Assembly (NCBI GenBank): GCA_023249675.1
Contig: JAHFCE010000008.1
Coordinates: 39,246 to 103,245, forward strand
DNA: 64,000 bases
Direction of reading: 5' to 3'
Origin: Elusimicrobiota bacterium
Lineage (GTDB): Bacteria > Elusimicrobiota > Elusimicrobia > UBA1565 > UBA9628
A model generated the notes under the pieces. The model did no database searches, had not been told where the DNA came from, and worked only from the letters and a program-made list of their open reading frames with translations. How positions within the stretch are numbered: position 1 is the first letter of the stretch; every line of letters begins with the position of its first letter. A program made the translations under genes and the position numbers. Positions 5,382-33,745 of the stretch are shown here, piece by piece.

Positions 5382-6680
5382 TCAGAAATTCCGGTAGATG
5401 TCCATGCGTCCCTCGACTCGGGGGACGTAAACCTGGGTTTCCGATGGGGTGAACTGGCGGATGAGGCCTAAGACCTCGGCGTTGCTGAGGGCGTCGACGT
5501 CGTAGCGCGAGGTGACGCTCTTGCGGACGTTGCCGGGGCCGCAATTATAGGCGGCGATGCTGAGGCTGCGGCGGTTGTCGGGGTTCTTGACCTTGCCGTA
5601 ATGCCGGGTCATGAGCATGTGCAGGTAGGTTGAACCCAGCATGATGTTGTTGTCCGGGTCGAAGAGATAGTCCGGGGTCACGAGAGCGTCCTTCTTGTAG
5701 AGATATTTGTAGGCCTCGTTGCCCGCGGTCCTGGGGACCAGCTGCATCAGTCCCAAAGCGCCCGCGGGCGACTTCGCCTTTGGGTTGAACTCGGATTCGG
5801 TGTGGATGACGGCGTAGATCAGGGCCGGGTCCAGGCCGTACTTCTTGGCGTAAAGGCCGATCTGGTCGGCGTAGCGGGCGGCGCGGATCTTCAGGTGGTC
5901 GGGGACCAGGTCGATCTTGACCGTGACCTTCAGGCGGGGCTTGCCGTCCTTGGCCACGACGGGCTTTTCCTCCACCACCATGGTCGGGGCGAGCTGTTCC
6001 TTGACGAAGCGGTCTGAGTTTTTCTCGGTGACGACAGCGCCGTCCTTGGCCTTGACCTGGTCCTTGAGCACCTCGGTCTTATGCTCCTCCTTGGTCGAGA
6101 GCATCTTCTTGGTCTGCGCGCGGATCTTCTCCTCGGCGAGGGCGCGGAGCTTCTCCTGTTCCTTCTTGTTGAGGTCGCCGGCGCTGGCGACGCCCTTCCT
6201 GGAGGGGGCCACCTCCTCCAAGGGAATCAGGACCTCGACTTCGATCCTGCCCTTTTCGAAGTCGACGGCGCTCTTGGAGTCGCCGCGCTCGTTGTAGTCC
6301 ACCCACTCCTTCTTGGTGGAATCTTGGTATTCGGCCCACTGCTCCTCGACGCGCTTCTTCATCCACGCGCTTTGCTCGGCCATCTTCCGCGCCAGTTCCT
6401 TGTACTGCGCCTCCATTTGAGCGGAGAGGCGGGACCAGTCTTCCTGCTGCTGTGCGTTGACGTCGTCGACATCGGCGCGCATCTGCTGCCGCGACTTGGC
6501 AAGGTCCTCCTGCATCTGCCGGGCGGGGTCGACGGCCGTTTTTGTCCTCTCCTGTTCGCGGTCTAGCTCATCGAAGGTGGAGCCCTCGGCGGCCTGCGCG
6601 CGCGGCGCGAGGGACATCAAGAGGATGAATGCACAGGCGGCGGTCGGCACAGCGCGGGCGGACATGGTTGATTCCTTCAC
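5382..6680 (-). CDS. Membrane-bound lytic murein transglycosylase (MltC/SLT domain) with N-terminal coiled-coil region
   Basis: Signal peptide. C-terminal SLT motifs (AVIHTESEFNP, GLMQL, AYNCGPG). Confidence 0.72.
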   Translation of the reverse strand: MKESTMSARAVPTAACAFILLMSLAPRAQAAEGSTFDELDREQERTKTAVDPARQMQEDLAKSRQQMRADVDDVNAQQQEDWSRLSAQMEAQYKELARKMAEQSAWMKKRVEEQWAEYQDSTKKEWVDYNERGDSKSAVDFEKGRIEVEVLIPLEEVAPSRKGVASAGDLNKKEQEKLRALAEEKIRAQTKKMLSTKEEHKTEVLKDQVKAKDGAVVTEKNSDRFVKEQLAPTMVVEEKPVVAKDGKPRLKVTVKIDLVPDHLKIRAARYADQIGLYAKKYGLDPALIYAVIHTESEFNPKAKSPAGALGLMQLVPRTAGNEAYKYLYKKDALVTPDYLFDPDNNIMLGSTYLHMLMTRHYGKVKNPDNRRSLSIAAYNCGPGNVRKSVTSRYDVDALSNAEVLGLIRQFTPSETQVYVPRVEGRMDIYRNF

Positions 6681-27546: not shown

Positions 27547-27998
27547 GATTTCGGGTTCTTGCTCTTGCCGGGCTTCTTCTTGCCGCTTTCGTGTCCGCCG
27601 CCCGAGCGAGGGGCGAGAACGACGAAGACACGGCGGTGCCCGGCCTGATTCCGGCGGGAAGCTTGATGCTTTTCTACCAGACGCAGGGCCCGCTGTCGTT
27701 TGTCGCGATGACGCCGAAGGACCGTCCCCAGGGCGCGCGCGAGCTCGGCACGGTTAAGGGCGTCTCCTGCCAGCACGGCCTGTCCATTCCGCTGTCGGCC
27801 GACGTGCGCGGAACCAGCGTTACCGGCGCGTACGGCAACGGGAGCTTCGTGAAGGCGATCGCGCAGATCAAGAAGATGAAGCCCGAGGTGAGCGGGATCT
27901 ACGACGTGCGCGTCGATCTGCGCGTGTTCAGCCTCCTCGGCATTTACCGGAAGCTCTGCACCGAGGTGACCGCGCGCGCCTTCGGCGCCGCGGCGTAG
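27543..27998 (+). CDS. TRL-like family protein, paralog 2 (GTG start overlapping upstream stop)
   Basis: Signal peptide. Paralogous C-terminus (YDVRVDLRVFSLLGIYRKLCT). Confidence 0.5.
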   Translation: MRFRVLALAGLLLAAFVSAARARGENDEDTAVPGLIPAGSLMLFYQTQGPLSFVAMTPKDRPQGARELGTVKGVSCQHGLSIPLSADVRGTSVTGAYGNGSFVKAIAQIKKMKPEVSGIYDVRVDLRVFSLLGIYRKLCTEVTARAFGAAA

Positions 27999-28331
27999 AG
28001 CTTGCTTGGCCGCCAGGTCTGACTGCGCGCCGGGAACCTCGTCGAGGCTCGCGACCTTGACGACGCGGCCGAACGTGGCCTGGATCGCGTCGGTGATCTC
28101 CTGGTAGACTGGGCCCGAATCGATGTTGCCCATGCCGCCGATCCGGCTTCGCAGGTATCCCATCGCCTTCTCGGTATTTTGCGACGGCATGATTGCCACG
28201 GAAAGATTCCTGTAGCGCGAACTGCCCGGGGCCTGGATACCCGCGAAAGGATCCGTGCGGGGCGGCGGAGTGTTGCAGCCCGTGAACGCCGCGAGTCCAG
28301 CGCAAAACGGCAGCAGCAGAATCCTTGTCAT
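27999..28331 (-). CDS. Putative lipoprotein (N-terminal about 110 codons look coding; 3' end unresolved)
   Basis: MTRILLLPFCAGLAAFTGC lipobox. The frame stays open to 27483, antisense to the TRL paralog, where it becomes Arg-rich junk. Confidence 0.3.
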
Positions 28332-28417
28332 CGTGTCTCCGTGAAAGCGACCGCGTCAAATTATACCAAGCGATCCAAGGACGCAAGTCCGCGAATGCGG
28401 CTTCCTGTTCGCTCTCC

Positions 28418-28436
28418 GTCTAACGCCGGGTTGGGC
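28418..28436. repeat. Short GTCTAAC..GTTGGGC palindromic core pair just past the last cassette ORF (possible degenerate terminal attC)
   Basis: RYYYAAC and GTTRRRY cores only 5 bp apart. Too short for a complete attC. Confidence 0.3.
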
Positions 28437-28446
28437 TTCAGCCTGC

Positions 28447-28857
28447 TTACCAGGCCAGCAAATCCTTCAAGTACCACGGCTCAAGTGCCGCAATGACCAA
28501 TATCCGAGCTGTCGCCATCAGAACGATCGCCTTCCACAAGGCCAGCGTCTTCCTGTTTCCGATCAGCGCGCCGCTCACGCCGATTTCGAGAGGCAAGAGG
28601 AGAAAGCCCAAATATGGAAGTTGAGATAAAAACAGGACGATCGGCATGCTCGCGCGTAATGCGGCCCAATGGGCCTTCGGAAGATCGATATAAAACAGGA
28701 AAGCCCATGCGAGGCCAAAAAAGAATATCGGCGAGCAGAAGATCGCATAGACGCCGGTGCTCTGATTGAAAAAAAATCCGAGGCCAAGCACCGCGACGGC
28801 AGTCGATCCGGCGATGAGTCTCTTGCGTCTGGTCGATTCACTCATATGTGAGCCCAA
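28447..28857 (-). CDS. Cassette ORF: small polytopic membrane protein, unknown function
   Basis: Four TM helices. Low-GC. Confidence 0.4.
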   Translation of the reverse strand: MGSHMSESTRRKRLIAGSTAVAVLGLGFFFNQSTGVYAIFCSPIFFFGLAWAFLFYIDLPKAHWAALRASMPIVLFLSQLPYLGFLLLPLEIGVSGALIGNRKTLALWKAIVLMATARILVIAALEPWYLKDLLAW

Positions 28858-28861
28858 CGAG

Positions 28862-28916
28862 AGGGTGAGCGGCGGCTATGAAGGTACTCCTTTTACGCTG
28901 TTAAGTCGTTCTTGAC
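28862..28916. repeat. attC-like site (short, about 55 bp): GCCCAAC...GTTAAGT
   Basis: Left half aligns with the other attC copies (GAGGGTGAGCGGCGGCTATGAAG). Overlaps the stop of the DUF2975-like ORF. Confidence 0.5.
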
Positions 28917-29370
28917 CGGCATTCTGCAAAATCCGTTCAAACATCACCGCCGCTGTGGCGCTAAGAGCAGAACCGAAGGTAATGAGGGCGCCCATAAAAA
29001 CACCGCCTGCACGATCATCACTGTTGCTCAACATAATGAAAAGTTCTCCTACCGCAACAGAACCGATAATGGCTAACGCACAAAGTTTTATAGTCCGCAG
29101 AGCCGCCTCTGTTGCTTGCGAGAACGCCTTGTTTTGTCCGATGTATCCCAACACCTTGAATGCCTGATAGAGTGCCACATAAAATGGAATGGACGCTAAA
29201 TACGCATACGCCAAAAAGGGGTCTTTGAAATAGATCTCAAAGAGCGTGGCGTGCGCGTTTCTACCTTCGATGCGGGGCTCCCAAAGCATGAGAGCAAGAG
29301 CCCCAATGCTGGTGAGCATAATGACTGCCTGAAGGAATTTCGTTGGAATGACGAGTGACCGCTTTTTCAT
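28876..29370 (-). CDS. Cassette ORF: DUF2975-like membrane protein
   Basis: Four TM helices with YoaS/DUF2975-like pattern. Low-GC. Confidence 0.4.
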   Translation of the reverse strand: MKKRSLVIPTKFLQAVIMLTSIGALALMLWEPRIEGRNAHATLFEIYFKDPFLAYAYLASIPFYVALYQAFKVLGYIGQNKAFSQATEAALRTIKLCALAIIGSVAVGELFIMLSNSDDRAGGVFMGALITFGSALSATAAVMFERILQNAGQERLNSVKGVPS

Positions 29371-29379
29371 CTTATGGCC

Positions 29380-29456
29380 GCCGAACGCCGAGGATGGGCG
29401 GCGGCTATTAAGATATTCCGCACTGAGTCTTCGTCCGCTCTATCCATTAGTTAGGC
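29380..29456. repeat. attC-like site (77 bp): GCCGAAC...GTTAGGC
   Basis: About 80% identical to the 30092-30171 copy, including the internal inverted repeat GCGGCGGCT/..GAG..CGC. Confidence 0.6.
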
Positions 29457-30065
29457 AGCCTCCGACGTATTCTGTGTTGCGCTTACATCAAGATCTCGCA
29501 GCAGGCCATCATGAAGGTCGTAAATCCAGCCGTGCACGGTCAGAGGACGCCCCTTGGCCCATGCCGAGGTGAGAATTGGAAGACGGCTGAGCTCTCGAAC
29601 CTGGCTAATCACGTTGAGTTCGCAGAGGCGTCGCCAACGCGCGTCCGCGTCGGTTCTACCGTCAATATCGGCCGCTTGGGAACGGCGTATCTCGCGTATT
29701 GGTGCAATCCAGCGCTCAAGCGGCTTCGGAACGGGTGCCCCAAGTGCTGCTTGAACGCCGCCACAGCCATAGTGGCCGCATACGATGACATCTGTGGTGC
29801 CAAGAAATTCGATCGCATACTGAAGAACGGCGATGCAGTTTAAGTCATCCGCGCGAACGATATTGGCCACGTTGCGGTGAACGAACAACTCGCCGGGTTC
29901 GAGGCCGACGATTTCGTTGGCCGGCACACGACTGTCCGCGCAACCGATCCAAAGGTAGCGGGGTGTCTGAATTGCGCACAGGCGTGTAAAATACTGCGGA
30001 TTCTGACTAACGCGCTTGGTTGCCCAGGCGCGATTGTTGGCGAAAAGTTCCGGCAAGTAACGCAT
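29451..30065 (-). CDS. Cassette ORF: beta-class carbonic anhydrase
   Basis: CADSRV and HYGCGG zinc-ligand motifs. Confidence 0.8.
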   Translation of the reverse strand: MRYLPELFANNRAWATKRVSQNPQYFTRLCAIQTPRYLWIGCADSRVPANEIVGLEPGELFVHRNVANIVRADDLNCIAVLQYAIEFLGTTDVIVCGHYGCGGVQAALGAPVPKPLERWIAPIREIRRSQAADIDGRTDADARWRRLCELNVISQVRELSRLPILTSAWAKGRPLTVHGWIYDLHDGLLRDLDVSATQNTSEAA

Positions 30066-30091
30066 TTGTTTCCCTTGAACCTAAATGGCTG

Positions 30092-30171
30092 GCCTAACGC
30101 AGGGGCTGACCAGCGGCGGCTATCAAGATATTCCGCACTGAGCCGCCGGCCGTTCTATCCATTGGTTAGGG
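30092..30171. repeat. attC-like site (80 bp): GCCTAAC...GTTAGGG
   Basis: Terminal inverted cores plus an internal inverted repeat (CAGCGGCGGCT...GAGCCGCCGGC). Lies between the brnA stop and the carbonic anhydrase start. Confidence 0.65.
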
Positions 30172-30402
30172 CAATGGGTGACGAGTTGCATAGGCATCAA
30201 TCAGTTTGCGGATCATCTTCTGATAGGGCGTGTGATATTTCTGCGCGGCCTTCTTGAAGAAGGCAACGCTCGACTTGCTGAGCGCCATGGTTATCTTCAC
30301 GCTCTCCTCCTTGAAGGCCAGTTCTTCAGGAGGGGGCAGGGAATCCCTGACCACGCTCAACGCGCCAAGAGGTTCATCCGTGTATTTGATTTTCTTTTTC
30401 AT
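30166..30402 (-). CDS. Cassette ORF: BrnA-like ribbon-helix-helix antitoxin
   Basis: MKKKIKYTDEPLG... with C-terminal RHH pattern (VKITMALSKSSVAFFKKAAQKYHTPYQKMIRKLIDAY). Its start lies inside the 3' end of the BrnT-like frame. Confidence 0.6.
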   Translation of the reverse strand: MKKKIKYTDEPLGALSVVRDSLPPPEELAFKEESVKITMALSKSSVAFFKKAAQKYHTPYQKMIRKLIDAYATRHPLP

Positions 30403-30646
30403 AAAGAGCCTTCCCTTTTCGCCAGTAGCCCGCTCCAAAGAGGCGAATCTTTTTCTCTCTGTACGTGAATCGAACGGTGAGGATTCCGTCGCCGACGCGG
30501 CCGAAGCAATACAACCGTTTTTCCTTCTGACTGTGCTCCAGATCTTCCGCGATAACTCTTTTGCTATCAGCGAATGCATGTTGAGCCGTTTCAAATGAAC
30601 CATGCGCCTCTTTAAGTATATATTGTATATGTATAAATAGCCATAC
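30374..30646 (-). pseudogene. BrnT-like (DUF497) toxin reading frame lacking a canonical start; out of frame with the SD-preceded ATG at 30603
   Basis: Frame -3 encodes ...HGSFETAQHAFADSKRVIAEDLEHSQKEKRLYCFGRVGDGILTVRFTYREKKIRLFGAGYWRKGKALYEKE*. The only ATG, preceded by AAGAGG, is in another frame (MVHLKRLN...). The 145-aa six-frame ORF is a chimera of both. Confidence 0.5.
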
Positions 30647-30699
30647 TTATTTATGGTCTAAAATAACATCATTTCGTCCCTGACGATTTGGCTGAATTG

Positions 30700-30777
30700 C
30701 CCTAACGCAGAGGATGACGAGCGGCGGCTATCAAGATCTCCATGCAAGCCGCCGTCTCGTCAATCCAATGGTTCGGT
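30700..30777. repeat. attC-like site (78 bp): CCCTAAC...GTTCGGT (degenerate cores)
   Basis: Aligns over about 80 bp with the 30092-30171 copy (AGCGGCGGCTATCAAGAT shared). Confidence 0.55.
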
Positions 30778-30800
30778 GTCCACTGCAATTTCATTTTAAC

Positions 30801-30873
30801 GCCGTTCATGCCGTTGCCTTCAAAGCCGTTTCGCCGTTCAGCCGTTTACGCCGTTTTGTCCGTCCTTCCGTTA
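30801..30873. repeat. Array of six GCCGTT direct repeats (8-15 bp spacing) plus one TCCGTT, between the caspase stop and the attC-like site
   Basis: GCCGTT at 30801, 30810, 30825, 30833, 30841 and 30850. TCCGTT at 30868. Confidence 0.5.
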
Positions 30874-30930
30874 CCCTGCATTAGAAATCTTTCTGCGGAC
30901 ACAAAATTAAAAATGTTTGAGATCATGGAA

Positions 30931-32346
30931 CTACTTCAGGCGTACTATCTCTTCCGCAGAGCCGGAACCCAGCATCGCCGGCGTCTGCTCGCGGTTCTGT
31001 CGGCGCGCGTCGTCCTGGACCTTGCTCGCGAGATAGTCGAAGAGTTTTTTCGCCCTGACGACTCCGTCGGCGTCGGCCGCGGCGCCGCCCAGGCCCTTCA
31101 GGAAGTGGTAGGTGAACGTCCCGTGACCCTGGTCGTCGCGGACGGTCGTGATCTGATCGGCTCCCGTGGCGGCGAAGACGGTCATTCGGTCCGCGACCGG
31201 CTGGACGCTCTCCGTCTTCGTGACCAGAGGGCGCGCGCCTTTGGCGAGGACGGAGCGTCCTCCGGCGCCCGAGAAGCAGGCGTCCAGGGCGACGATGACT
31301 TGCTTGACCTTCAAGCCGCCGAGCTTCTCGTAGAGGCGCTTGACGGGGTAGGCCGTGTTTTCAAGGAAACTGGGGTCGCCGTCCCAGGGCACGAGGTAGG
31401 ACGCGCCGGAGGAGGGATCGGGGGCTCCATGGCCGGAGAAGTAGAAGAAAACCCGACTGTTGGGCGTGACGTTCTTGGGAAGCCATACCTCGAGGAACTT
31501 CTGCAGGGCGGTGAAGCCCGCTTTCTCGCCCAGCAGGGAAACGACGTTGCGGCTGGGGTAGCCCATCGCCAGCAGGTGGTTCTTGACGGCTTGCGCGTCG
31601 CGCTCCGCGAACGCGGCTTCGGGCAGGTCCGAGTATTTCGAGATGCCCATGACAATGGCGAAGTCGTCCGGGCGCTGCGCGAGCTTGAGCGCGGAAGCGT
31701 CGACGTCCGAGTGGATCTCGGGCGCCGGTTTCGCGGGAGCCGCCTGGCCGGCCGCCACCGCCTCCGTCACCAAGCTCTGCATCTCGGCCTTGGAGATTCC
31801 CGACCCAGAGGGCTTCGCGAGCTCTTTGCGTTTGAGGCTCTCCGCGCGTTGCGCCATCACTTTTTGGTGCAGGGTGCTGCCCGGATAAAAGTTCGCCCGC
31901 AACATCTGGCCCATCCCTTTCCAGGGGTTGCTGAAGGGGGAGGAGTAGATTTCCTCGTAGTAAAGCTCCTCCTTCGTGTAGGCGGAGAGGGCCTGGATTC
32001 CGTAATGCATGCGCAGCGTGTTTTGCGGCGGCGGCTCTCGGAACGGGCCGAATTTCCCGAACATGGTGTTGACGATCACGTCAGCGTTGCGGGGTTCGTT
32101 TGGGTTGGCGATCAGGAATATGTGCCAGGAGGGATTGGCCATCTGCATCCGGGTGATGATGATGTCGGTGTAGACAGACGCGGCGGAGGTGACGCCGAAG
32201 CTCAACTCCTGGTTGGAATTTCCCGTCTCAACGGTGACCGTGGTTCCGCCGCCCTTGACGCGCTCCGCGCCGCCGCAGCCAGTGAGAAATCCTCCGCAAC
32301 CAAGAGCGACAATTAAAACCGCTGCTCGATGTACCAAAGGTGCCAT
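30931..32346 (-). CDS. First cassette ORF: lipoprotein with C-terminal caspase-like (peptidase C14) domain
   Basis: Lipobox LTGC. Catalytic His in FFYFSGHG and Cys in VIVALDACFSGAG. GGAGGA RBS 9 nt upstream. High GC, unlike the other cassettes. Confidence 0.75.
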   Translation of the reverse strand: MAPLVHRAAVLIVALGCGGFLTGCGGAERVKGGGTTVTVETGNSNQELSFGVTSAASVYTDIIITRMQMANPSWHIFLIANPNEPRNADVIVNTMFGKFGPFREPPPQNTLRMHYGIQALSAYTKEELYYEEIYSSPFSNPWKGMGQMLRANFYPGSTLHQKVMAQRAESLKRKELAKPSGSGISKAEMQSLVTEAVAAGQAAPAKPAPEIHSDVDASALKLAQRPDDFAIVMGISKYSDLPEAAFAERDAQAVKNHLLAMGYPSRNVVSLLGEKAGFTALQKFLEVWLPKNVTPNSRVFFYFSGHGAPDPSSGASYLVPWDGDPSFLENTAYPVKRLYEKLGGLKVKQVIVALDACFSGAGGRSVLAKGARPLVTKTESVQPVADRMTVFAATGADQITTVRDDQGHGTFTYHFLKGLGGAAADADGVVRAKKLFDYLASKVQDDARRQNREQTPAMLGSGSAEEIVRLK

Positions 32347-32542
32347 TGACAGTTCCTCCCGTTCCTAATAATTTCAGTGCTGAGCCAGGTACGCCGAACT
32401 TATCAGTATGCGGTTCCGCATAGTGCGACTTCCAATGTTAATCATACTTCGAATTGTGGAGAGAAAATCAGGGCTTTGCCAATGGGGGCGAATATTAATA
32501 TTGCGAAAGGCCGCGATGGGCGACGGTATAGCATCGGTGAGG
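32347..32542. other. AT-rich intergenic region between the intI stop and the first cassette: candidate attI plus cassette promoter
   Basis: GC drops sharply. Contains a GTTAATC core-like sequence (32436-32442). No attC copy here. Confidence 0.35.
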
Positions 32543-33745
32543 TCATTTGGAACCGAGCCCAAGTCGGTCCGCGGGGCTCTGCACGCCGCGTCCTCCGCGA
32601 TTCAGGACATGGGTGTAAATCATCGTGGTGCTGACATCGCTGTGCCCCAGCAGCTCTTGGATCGTGCGAATGTCGTAGCCGTCCTCCAGGAGATGGGTGG
32701 CGAAGGAATGCCTCAAGGTGTGGCATCCGGCCGCCTTGGTGATGCCGGCGTCGATGCGCGCTTGGTGAAAGGCCTTTTGAAGCACCGATTCGTGGAGGTG
32801 ATGCCTTCTCCTTTGGCCGGTCTCGCGATCCACATAGTGGCTCGCGGCGGGAAACACCCATTGCCACCCCCACTCTTTGTCGGCGTTCGGATACTTTCGC
32901 GCCAATGCATTTGGCAGCTCTACCCGGCCCAGGCCCGCCGTGAGATCGTCCTCATGCTGTCGTTTGACCGCGGACAGGTGGCGCTGAAGGTCTTCGCGAA
33001 GCCCCGAGGGCAAGGTCGTGTAGCGGTCTTTGCCGCCTTTGCCCGAACGCACGACCAGTTGATTGAGGCCCCAGTCGAGGTCCTTGACTCTGAGCTGGCA
33101 GCACTCGAGCAGGCGCAGTCCCGAGCCGTAGAGGAGCATCGCCATGAGGCGAGGCACGCCGCGCATGCGGTCGAGCACATGGCGCACCTCATCTTTGCTC
33201 AGGACGACCGGCAAGCGCTCCGGTCGCTTGGCGCGCACGACGCCCGAGATCAAGCCCAGCTTGCGGCCCAGGCCGTGCTCGAAGGCGAACAGGAGCGCGT
33301 TGAGCGCCTGATTTTGAGTGGAGGCGCTGACATGTCCGGCCTCGGCCAGGTCGGACAGGAAGCGGCCGACGGCGGCCTCGTCGAGCTCCGCGATCGGGTG
33401 CTCGGTGTGCTCAAGGAGCCGCCGAGTCCATGCAACATAGGCGGTTTCGGTGCGCGGGCTGAAGTGTCGGGCCCTGATCGCCGTCCGAACCTTGTCGAGG
33501 AGAGCATCGCATGCGCGCGAAGGGCGGAGGGAGGACGTTGGGGAGCCGGCGAGCTCGACGCGATCATCGGCGAACAAGGCGGTGAGGCGGGCGAGCGCGT
33601 CCTCTTCGCGAGGAACGGACCAGCATTTTTCCGCGTCGTGCCAGCGGCGTCCGGGCACCGTCTTGATCCTGGCGACGCGTTCGGGGGCGTACGAAAAGAA
33701 AACGAGGAGGCGGCCGTTCTCGGGGCGGACGACGATCGAAGCCAT
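32543..33745 (-). CDS. intI: Integron integrase IntI (tyrosine recombinase) with an extra N-terminal domain of about 75 aa
   Basis: IntI-specific insertion ALARKYPNADKEWGWQWVFPA. Catalytic region HTLRHSFATHLL...LLGHSDVSTTMIYTHV. The N-terminal MASIVVRPENGRLLVFFSYAPERVARIKTVPGRRWHDAEKCWSVP is not part of canonical IntI. Confidence 0.85.
   Translation of the reverse strand: MASIVVRPENGRLLVFFSYAPERVARIKTVPGRRWHDAEKCWSVPREEDALARLTALFADDRVELAGSPTSSLRPSRACDALLDKVRTAIRARHFSPRTETAYVAWTRRLLEHTEHPIAELDEAAVGRFLSDLAEAGHVSASTQNQALNALLFAFEHGLGRKLGLISGVVRAKRPERLPVVLSKDEVRHVLDRMRGVPRLMAMLLYGSGLRLLECCQLRVKDLDWGLNQLVVRSGKGGKDRYTTLPSGLREDLQRHLSAVKRQHEDDLTAGLGRVELPNALARKYPNADKEWGWQWVFPAASHYVDRETGQRRRHHLHESVLQKAFHQARIDAGITKAAGCHTLRHSFATHLLEDGYDIRTIQELLGHSDVSTTMIYTHVLNRGGRGVQSPADRLGLGSK

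Follow-up and report, generated by a model that had tools for sequence, protein, structure and literature searches.

Here we describe a caspase homologue encoded by the first cassette of an integron in the genome of an Elusimicrobiota bacterium. The gene lies in a stretch of 64,000 nucleotides (contig JAHFCE010000008.1 of assembly GCA_023249675.1, positions 39,246 to 103,245 of the forward strand), which is referred to as the window throughout and in whose numbering all coordinates are given unless another locus is named. The next gene 5' of the caspase open reading frame (ORF) is intI, the integron integrase gene, which is found on the same strand and is transcribed toward the attI site and the cassettes. 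Based on cassette boundaries, signal and catalytic motifs, predicted structure, and family context, we propose that the gene encodes a lipid-anchored, Arg/Lys-specific protease of the cell envelope that is carried as an integron cassette, a reading to which we give a probability of roughly 0.6. A previous sequence-only reading of the same DNA had recognised a lipoprotein caspase in the first cassette, next to a toxin-antitoxin cassette, and had suggested a role in defence or programmed death. The features that bear on the caspase cassette are as follows.

32543..33745 (-): intI, integron integrase, 400 aa; TIGR02249 at 427 bits (cut-off 265 bits), with Phage_integrase and SAM_4 domains
32399..32470 (-): attI region; conserved block ACAATTCGAAG(T)ATGA, followed after approximately 40 nt by A-A-G|TT
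30706..32398 (-): cassette 1 (leader, caspase ORF, spacer, attC), 1,693 bp, delimited by complementarity between its 5' end and R''
32347..32398 (-): 5' leader of the cassette with Shine-Dalgarno sequence, GGGAGGAA, read directly from the sequence
30931..32346 (-): lipoprotein caspase ORF including stop codon, 471 aa, ATG start
32275..32346 (-): signal peptide ending in the LTGC lipobox, with lipidation predicted at Cys24 (32277..32275)
31816..32211 (-): N-terminal alpha/beta module, residues 46-177; separate AlphaFold model with a predicted local distance difference test score (pLDDT) of 78
31666..31815 (-): linker, residues 178-227; low pLDDT at residues 179-206
31710..31699 (-): S-D-x-D motif in the linker, residues 213-216; S213 and D216 invariant, D214 nearly so
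30970..31665 (-): Peptidase C14 (caspase-fold) domain, residues 228-459; PF00656, invariant residues, and fold match
31431..31429 (-): His306, catalytic dyad, invariant
31284..31282 (-): Asp355, at position Cys-2, invariant
31278..31276 (-): Cys357, catalytic dyad, invariant
30783..30930 (-): non-coding spacer from the stop codon to attC, 148 nt, GC 0.45
30782..30697 (-): attC of the caspase cassette; covariance model 82 bits, R'' CCGAAC, imperfect hairpin, R' G|TTAGGG

Delimitation of the caspase cassette

In the window, a repeat is present in four copies, each following one of several successive minus-strand ORFs. Three of these repeats were aligned with the three attCs of locus L004, the closest related integron (from an Elusimicrobiota metagenome-assembled genome (MAG), with an IntI that is 66% identical), and the six sequences fold into a common hairpin in which 13 of the 28 consensus pairs show compensatory changes. 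A covariance model built from this alignment was run on the 64-kb window and on the other loci, and in the window it returned exactly three strong attCs, all on the minus strand, with scores of 68-89 bits. The attC of the caspase cassette is strand-specific (82 bits compared to 17.7 bits on the opposite strand), carries extra bases on the R''-L'' arm, and folds as DNA with a z-score of -4.7 to -4.9. On the other side of the gene, the attI block aligns with the intI-proximal junctions of L004, L005, and L006, all of them related Elusimicrobiota integrons, which places the crossover between 32399 (G) and 32398 (T); the corresponding junction of L004 was validated by its complementarity to the R'' box of the first cassette of that locus.

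The first bases of an integron cassette (TTRRRY) derive from the R' box of its own attC, and therefore the 5' end of a cassette must pair with its own R'' box. This is the case here, where the 5' end G|TTCGGCG is complementary to the R'' box (CA)CCGAAC of the same cassette (7 of 8 positions when extended), while the R' half that now stands beside the attC of cassette 1 (TTAGGGC) finds its perfect complement in the R'' box of cassette 2, GCCCTAAC. The same rule holds in five further cassettes, namely the carbonic anhydrase cassette of the window, the first cassette of L004, and three cassettes of metagenome contig L138. Excision of cassette 1 is predicted to yield a circle of 1,693 bp with the junction CTGCG|TTCGGC (...CCTCTGCG|TTCGGCGTACC...). 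The same gene order is present in an independent Logan assembly.

The cassette is a genuine one, with the caspase gene as its only ORF; it is inserted at attI and occupies the first position of the array, as had been read from the sequence alone. Had the gene instead been an ordinary host gene, held between intI and the array by conserved synteny, one might expect what is indeed seen in its base composition (third-position GC content (GC3) near the host value), in its nearest full-length homologues (P0002 and P0003, both in non-integron contexts), and in the unusually long gap between its stop codon and attC. Such an arrangement does not account for the attI junction upstream of the gene and the full attC downstream, for the pairing of its 5' flank G|TTCGG with its own R'' CCGAAC, or for a second family member that has an attC on either side in L138. 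Related IntIs were not accompanied by the host genes that border the window integron (PBP1A and others), the position after attI in L004 is occupied by other cassettes, and no synteny was found between the window and L002, L003, or the IntI loci. The attI and attC boundaries, together with this absence of a conserved neighbourhood, therefore rule out conserved host synteny, the outcome that the sequence-only reading had named as fatal to its proposal, and we consider it extremely improbable that the gene is not a cassette.

Type of integron

The orientation of the array was compared with a control set of 80 IntI loci from GTDB genomes. The orientation returned by the covariance model was validated by canonical proteobacterial integrons. 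While attCs were located upstream of intI on the opposite strand, as is canonical, in the proteobacterial loci L045, L053, L064, and L077 and in the Verrucomicrobiae locus L024, they were located downstream of intI on the same strand in the window, L004, L076, L037, L026, and others. The window integron is thus of the 'inverted' type, with intI co-directional with the cassettes. This atypical arrangement, in which intI is transcribed toward attI, has been described for Treponema (PMC3607928), and in inverted chromosomal integrons the attCs are typical of the taxon and alike within a lineage, as they are in the window (PMC8352920). An N-terminal extension of IntI is common to the window and Treponema denticola (L051). 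The window integron differs from the Treponema type in its host phylum, Elusimicrobiota, and in its short array of three intact and two decaying cassettes, and it differs from its relative L004 in that the latter has a brnTA pair standing between intI and attI.

Several observations were made on the integrase platform itself. The N-terminal extension of the window IntI (33506-33745, -) comprises some 80 aa ahead of the SAM-like domain, and among the 80 IntI loci the residues before approximately position 25 were matched only by L004, L005, L006, L008, L031, and L051, which represent three Elusimicrobiota, one Nitrospiraceae, one Fidelibacterota, and T. denticola (L051). In L004 the brnT/brnA pair (2195-2890) comes after the stop codon of intI and before the attI junction; because no attC follows it, the pair appears to be part of the platform and not a cassette. 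L005 and L006 are contigs of one MAG (UBA9639), each with an intI, and both stop (at 6013 and 11375, respectively) with the same 16 nt past the attI GTT, which looks like an assembly break where the variable cassettes begin and suggests two integrons in one genome.

Signal, catalytic domain, and predicted fold of the caspase

Translation of the caspase ORF is preceded by the Shine-Dalgarno sequence GGAGG, read 8-12 nt 5' of the ATG. The protein begins with MAPLVHRAAVLIVALGCGGFLTGC, in which a charged n-region and a hydrophobic core lead to the lipobox L-T-G-C (residues 21-24, ending in Cys24). This tetrapeptide satisfies the lipobox pattern [LVI][ASTVI][GAS]C, and the same alignment column is a lipobox in most full-length homologues. 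In the C-terminal half, FFYFSGHG (with His306) precedes DACFSG (with Cys357), so that both residues stand in the contexts SGHG and D-x-C-x-SG, and His306, Asp355, and Cys357 are invariant in an alignment of the window protein with 16 homologues (17 sequences). Pfam PF00656 (Peptidase_C14) matches residues 229-458 with 46 bits (gathering cut-off 21.4 bits; E 6.8e-12), covering profile positions 3-223 of 233. The lipoprotein signal, the order of the His/Cys dyad, and the C14 assignment, all of which had been proposed before any profile search, are therefore retained, and judged by its sequence the product is a lipoprotein-type Peptidase C14 with an intact dyad.

An AlphaFold model of the whole protein (mean pLDDT 74) indicates a caspase/hemoglobinase fold. 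Its predicted C-terminal half is matched by MALT1, Trypanosoma brucei metacaspase 2 (TbMCA2), Arabidopsis metacaspase 9 (AtMC9), and Geobacter GSU0716 with Foldseek E-values from 1.7e-10 to approximately 1e-8, and its His motif aligns with YSGHG of TbMCA2. At the sequence level, phmmer with the catalytic half gave no match in the PDB, and the best hit of a profile search against the same database was TbMCA2 at an E-value of only 0.2. The best structural match to the modelled catalytic domain is the MALT1 paracaspase (Foldseek E 1.7e-10, template modelling (TM) score 0.69 on the target), which has the same D-x-C arrangement. MALT1 and the window protein are only 16-18% identical, and the latter is bacterial, predicted to be exported, and devoid of death or Ig domains, so that no functional homology is implied. 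Bacterial orthocaspases and metacaspase-like C14 proteins (Microcystis MaOC1; Geobacter GSU0716, PDB 3bij) share the caspase/hemoglobinase fold, the His-Cys order, and the Asp at Cys-2. The window protein is set apart from them by its lipoprotein export signal, by a novel N-terminal module of envelope type, by its place in a mainly Elusimicrobiota expansion, and by the lack of a significant sequence match to solved structures.

Two short motifs outside the dyad are conserved. The GGRSVLAKGARP loop C-terminal to Cys357 is invariant across the family and has low pLDDT. The S-D-x-D motif of the linker, approximately 12 residues ahead of the catalytic domain, resembles a caspase-type DxxD site, yet the S1 pocket predicts basic specificity.

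The N-terminal module

In its AlphaFold model, the N-terminal module is arranged as beta-alpha-beta(4)-alpha(3). Foldseek matches to this model were weak but one-sided (E 3e-4 to 1e-2, TM 0.3-0.45): FlgT, the Neisseria lipoprotein GNA1162, PelC, the periplasmic domain of CadC, the N-domain of TolB, HpaA, DUF330, and LptE all belong to the periplasm or the outer membrane, in keeping with the lipobox. With lipoprotein domains of the PelC/FlgT-N/TolB-N/LptE kind, the module shares a beta-alpha-beta sandwich topology and a position after a lipoprotein signal; identity is only 7-12% and there is no relationship at the sequence level, so that membership of this group cannot be claimed. A Pfam scan of 13 family members returned nothing credible for the module, and a profile search against the PDB gave chance-level matches only. 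The module is seldom met: a search of 1.8 billion proteins yielded 65 matching cluster representatives. Weak TPR matches, every one below the Pfam cut-offs, were obtained in 6 of 10 shorter module-matching proteins that were scanned; these six (P0126, P0132, P0137, P0164, P0168, and P0180; 280-370 aa) have the weak C-terminal TPR match in place of the caspase domain. The module may be a reusable one that serves in envelope anchoring or partner binding.

A largely lineage-confined family of mostly lipoprotein caspases

A search of 5.8 billion proteins returned more than 2,545 family matches, and those with a named source are mostly from Elusimicrobiota, a phylum that a 2012 survey lists (as Elusimicrobia) as being without metacaspases (PMC3501461). 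The linker and C14 domain, which make up the C-terminal 55-65% of the query, are 55-70% identical across the family, while the N-terminal part is exchanged and may consist of the window module, ankyrin repeats, Sel1, PDZ, or other, unassigned domains. A lipobox-like motif is present in 74 of the 120 best matches, including ankyrin versions in which the repeats directly follow the Cys.

The nearest full-length relatives, P0002 (67% identity) and P0003 (66%), lie in ordinary chromosomal surroundings, where neither an attC nor a repeat follows the gene. No IntI was detected in 82 caspase-family loci (562 kb), nor was a caspase detected in the 80 IntI loci, and clustering of neighbouring genes around some 80 family loci revealed no recurrent partner, the best candidate occurring in 4 loci. 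Two or three tandem copies are present in nine of the 82 family loci, and the host's own 637-kb contig has at least two more copies, a paralogue (P0037) and an Ank-C14 gene located 3 kb apart, far from any integrase. We conclude that the family is largely confined to its lineage, that it is native to the host, and that its members do not normally move. In the metagenome loci L120 (6001-9393), L104, L112, L094, L132, and L144, two or three copies stand together, in tandem or head-to-head, which suggests local duplication and diversification. The caspases of L112 were considered as a possible cassette and rejected, given that the single attC lies 5.6 kb away and no flanking attC was found even with the filters turned off.

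The only other complete caspase cassette was found with the attC model on L138, a metagenome contig of 4.2 kb, where a 470-aa lipoprotein caspase lies between attCs of 76 and 82 bits and the 5' end of its cassette, GTTCGACCG, matches the R'' box, CGGTCGAAC. This protein has a different N-terminal module and a catalytic half that is 56% identical to that of the window protein. The order on L138 (1074-4022) is a previous cassette, the 470-aa caspase, brnT/brnA, and a 180-aa secreted protein, with attCs nearly identical in type to those of the window. Literature searches returned no report of caspase cassettes in integrons or of Elusimicrobiota integrons.

Neighbouring cassettes and the distal array

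The remainder of the array consists of the following elements.

30098..30705 (-): cassette 2; brnT (open frame 30646..30374), brnA (30402..30166), and attC
30176..30089 (-): attC of cassette 2; covariance model 89 bits
29386..30097 (-): cassette 3; beta-carbonic anhydrase (30065..29451; Pro_CA 168 bits) and attC
29461..29377 (-): attC of cassette 3; covariance model 68 bits
28447..29385 (-): distal decaying array; DUF2975 gene and 136-aa membrane ORF
29370..28876 (-): DUF2975 gene; half attC only, approximately 28890..28861, missed by the covariance model
28857..28447 (-): 136-aa membrane ORF; no recognisable attC, a tiny CCCAAC...GTTAGAC remnant after the ORF
28008..28349 (-): truncated 5' fragment of a second caspase-family lipoprotein gene, approximately 110 codons (tblastn)

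The toxin-antitoxin cassette reported beside the caspase is indeed the next cassette, with qualifications. The 145-aa 'BrnTA' ORF listed at 30166-30646 (-) is a frame artefact that runs over a 5'-truncated brnT and an intact brnA (78 aa); the brnT has no ATG or GTG start and is without the first 15 or so residues present in BrnT of L004 and L138, so that cassette 2 is an antitoxin with a probably dead toxin. One point that speaks for the sequence-only reading is L138, where the caspase cassette is likewise followed directly by a brnTA cassette. Although BrnT/A were detected at only 4 of 80 IntI loci, each of the three Elusimicrobiota-type arrays encountered has them. The genes of the two arrays are not close orthologues, the brnTs being approximately 26% identical, and with two cases and a random-order expectation near 0.05 the adjacency stays anecdotal and is not taken to show that the two cassettes work together. 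A complete beta-class carbonic anhydrase makes up cassette 3 (GC3 0.60; 234 bits with the can-type NCBIfam model, below its cut-off of 251).

The distal array (28380-28925) is decaying. The caspase-family fragment beyond it (GC3 0.80) encodes a signal peptide, the lipobox FTGC, and approximately 85 residues of an N-terminal module of the type found in P0116, P0117, and the L138 protein (tblastn E-values of 2e-7, 3e-11, and 3e-7, respectively). No C14 part follows the fragment, which runs into the convergent gene 27591..27998 (+).

Base composition, spacer, and possible origin of the cassette

The caspase gene has a GC content of 0.634 and a GC3 of 0.83 (0.861 in the catalytic half and 0.785 in the N-terminal part), compared to a GC3 of 0.86-0.91 in eight host genes, 0.79 in intI, and 0.51-0.66 in four other cassettes. 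The claim that its composition, unlike that of the other cassettes, matches the host is thus essentially right, although the value is near that of the host and not equal to it, the N-terminal part being the lower.

Six copies of GCCGTT (AACGGC on the gene strand) are found within 56 nt of the spacer (30801-30856), 8-15 nt apart with three of the five gaps being 8-9 nt, and one CCGTT follows at 30868. As the 64-kb window contains 46 copies on that strand, some 0.04 would be expected per 56 nt, and the repeats are real and non-random. The length of the spacer is likewise out of the ordinary, the gap between stop codon and attC being 0-49 nt in the neighbouring window cassettes, L004, and L138, which agrees with the earlier remark that a repeat-bearing spacer is unusual for a cassette. 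Rfam gave no match in the spacer, whether run at E<=1 on 28-33 kb or at gathering scores on the whole window, and only two tRNAs were detected elsewhere. A terminator and promoter scan identified no terminator-like site in the spacer, and its sole sigma-70-like site lies in attI, at chance level. The predicted RNA fold of the spacer has less structure than shuffled sequences (z +1.4). When the GCCGTT repeat pattern was sought in 163 loci, the array was found in the window sequence only, and blastn searches of all loci with the spacer, the 5' leader, the attI region, and the remaining cassettes returned nothing. The spacer is unlikely to be the scar of a fusion between the caspase cassette and an ORF-less cassette, since the 5' end pairs with the R'' of the present attC.

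The first array position normally holds the newest cassette. We therefore entertain, as a speculative proposal with the odds well against it, that cassette 1 is young and 'home-made', in that an Elusimicrobiota-type attC became attached to a caspase gene of the host lineage and the AT-rich, repeat-bearing stretch of 148 nt is a trace of that event. It fits host-like codon usage in a first-position cassette, nearest relatives that are chromosomal genes outside cassettes, the recurrence of the family in arrays (cassette 1, L138, and the truncated copy at the array end), and the unusual non-coding joint ahead of attC.

Proposed function and alternatives

In the model that we favour, the signal peptide and lipobox would direct export and, through Cys24, lipid anchoring in the cell envelope, so that the caspase would be at work outside the cytoplasm. 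Its location, partner, or oligomeric state would be determined by the N-terminal module, a flexible linker would join this module to the catalytic domain, and the caspase-fold domain would cleave its periplasmic or surface targets after Arg or Lys. In metacaspases, orthocaspases, and MALT1, all Arg/Lys-specific, the S1 feature is an Asp that precedes the catalytic Cys by two residues, and since Asp355 holds this position in the window protein, cleavage after Arg or Lys rather than Asp is predicted. Orthocaspases cleave after basic residues by means of a His-Cys dyad (PMC6426788). The invariant GGRSVLAKGARP loop that follows Cys357 is a candidate autoprocessing site, and a cut there may be part of activation. 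The integron would add only mobility and first-position expression.

Several points weigh against this model. Export, lipidation, activity, and specificity are predicted by sequence rules established in other phyla, the fold matches of the N-terminal module are weak (TM 0.3-0.45), and attI was placed by homology and complementarity only. A cysteine protease of the envelope needs a reducing environment, which is plausible in anaerobes. The model does not account for the repeat-bearing spacer of 148 nt, and the shared caspase-brnTA order hints, anecdotally, at a link for which it likewise has no place.

A role in defence or programmed death, in which a caspase triggered by infection or stress would kill or arrest the cell, possibly together with BrnTA, was the function put forward from the sequence alone, and we find it improbable. 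It draws on conflict-system caspases, whose models score best for the catalytic domain: the PADLOC 'caspase' model matches with 49.8 bits, but only over positions 3-178 of 453, and the best NCBIfam match is NF047832 ('caspase, EACC1-associated type'), at 72.7 bits approximately half its curated cut-off of 140. The PADLOC match is at domain level for the caspase only, and no other cassette protein was matched. Phage-defence genes are described in integron cassettes (bioRxiv 10.1101/2024.07.02.601719), and both caspase cassettes found here directly precede brnTA, which is rare among IntI loci; the two brnTA pairs are not close homologues, however, and the brnT of the window is truncated and start-less. 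The lipoprotein signal, conserved across much of the family, would put the protease outside the cytoplasm. Moreover, the cassette consists of a single ORF, without an EACC1, sensor, NTPase, gasdermin, CRISPR, or effector partner and with no conserved neighbour in approximately 80 loci, and nearly all family members are stand-alone, non-mobile chromosomal genes that are often in tandem.

Another alternative is a surface-bound or released enzyme that acts on foreign proteins, either in nutrition (peptide fermentation, as an analogue of gingipains) or as a weapon against neighbours or hosts, with the N-terminal modules as target adaptors. The strong expansion of the family with tandem arrays of 2-3 copies (L120, L104, and L112), the swapping of N-terminal modules (ankyrin, Sel1, PDZ, possibly TPR) in a pattern typical of diversifying recognition, and recruitment by an integron, which fits an accessory, niche-dependent trait, are all in its favour. 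Conversely, the sequence offers no signal that would point to surface exposure or secretion, the proteins whose fold the module resembles (PelC, TolB-N, LptE, and FlgT) face the periplasm, and no transporter or peptide-uptake genes are linked, and we hold this reading to be unlikely, if worth bearing in mind. That the gene is a silent or decaying passenger without current function in its host is very improbable: the distal array does decay (half attC, missing attC, truncated caspase fragment) and brnT is truncated, but the caspase ORF is intact, retains all family-invariant residues and a strong Shine-Dalgarno sequence, and holds the first array position with an intact attC.

Implications

All components of the system are of known kinds, from the orthocaspase-like C14 protease and the bacterial lipoprotein to the integron cassette and the inverted chromosomal integron that carries it. 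The cassette is a fully delimited, non-resistance one with a nameable source lineage, as gene family, attC type, and codon usage all point to the Elusimicrobiota themselves. This favours the view that the cassettes stocked by chromosomal integrons are made in the lineage that carries them. If cassette 1 was indeed home-made, the family would be a natural system in which cassette birth, an unsolved step of integron biology, can be traced by comparing cassette and non-cassette orthologues.

The analysis also flags a large family of caspase homologues that are mostly predicted to be exported lipoproteins, that can exchange their N-terminal modules, and that appear not to have been studied. In the debate on bacterial caspase homologues, the predicted envelope location argues against a universal role in cell death, and localisation signals and family context need checking before a caspase beside a toxin-antitoxin pair on an integron is called a defence system.

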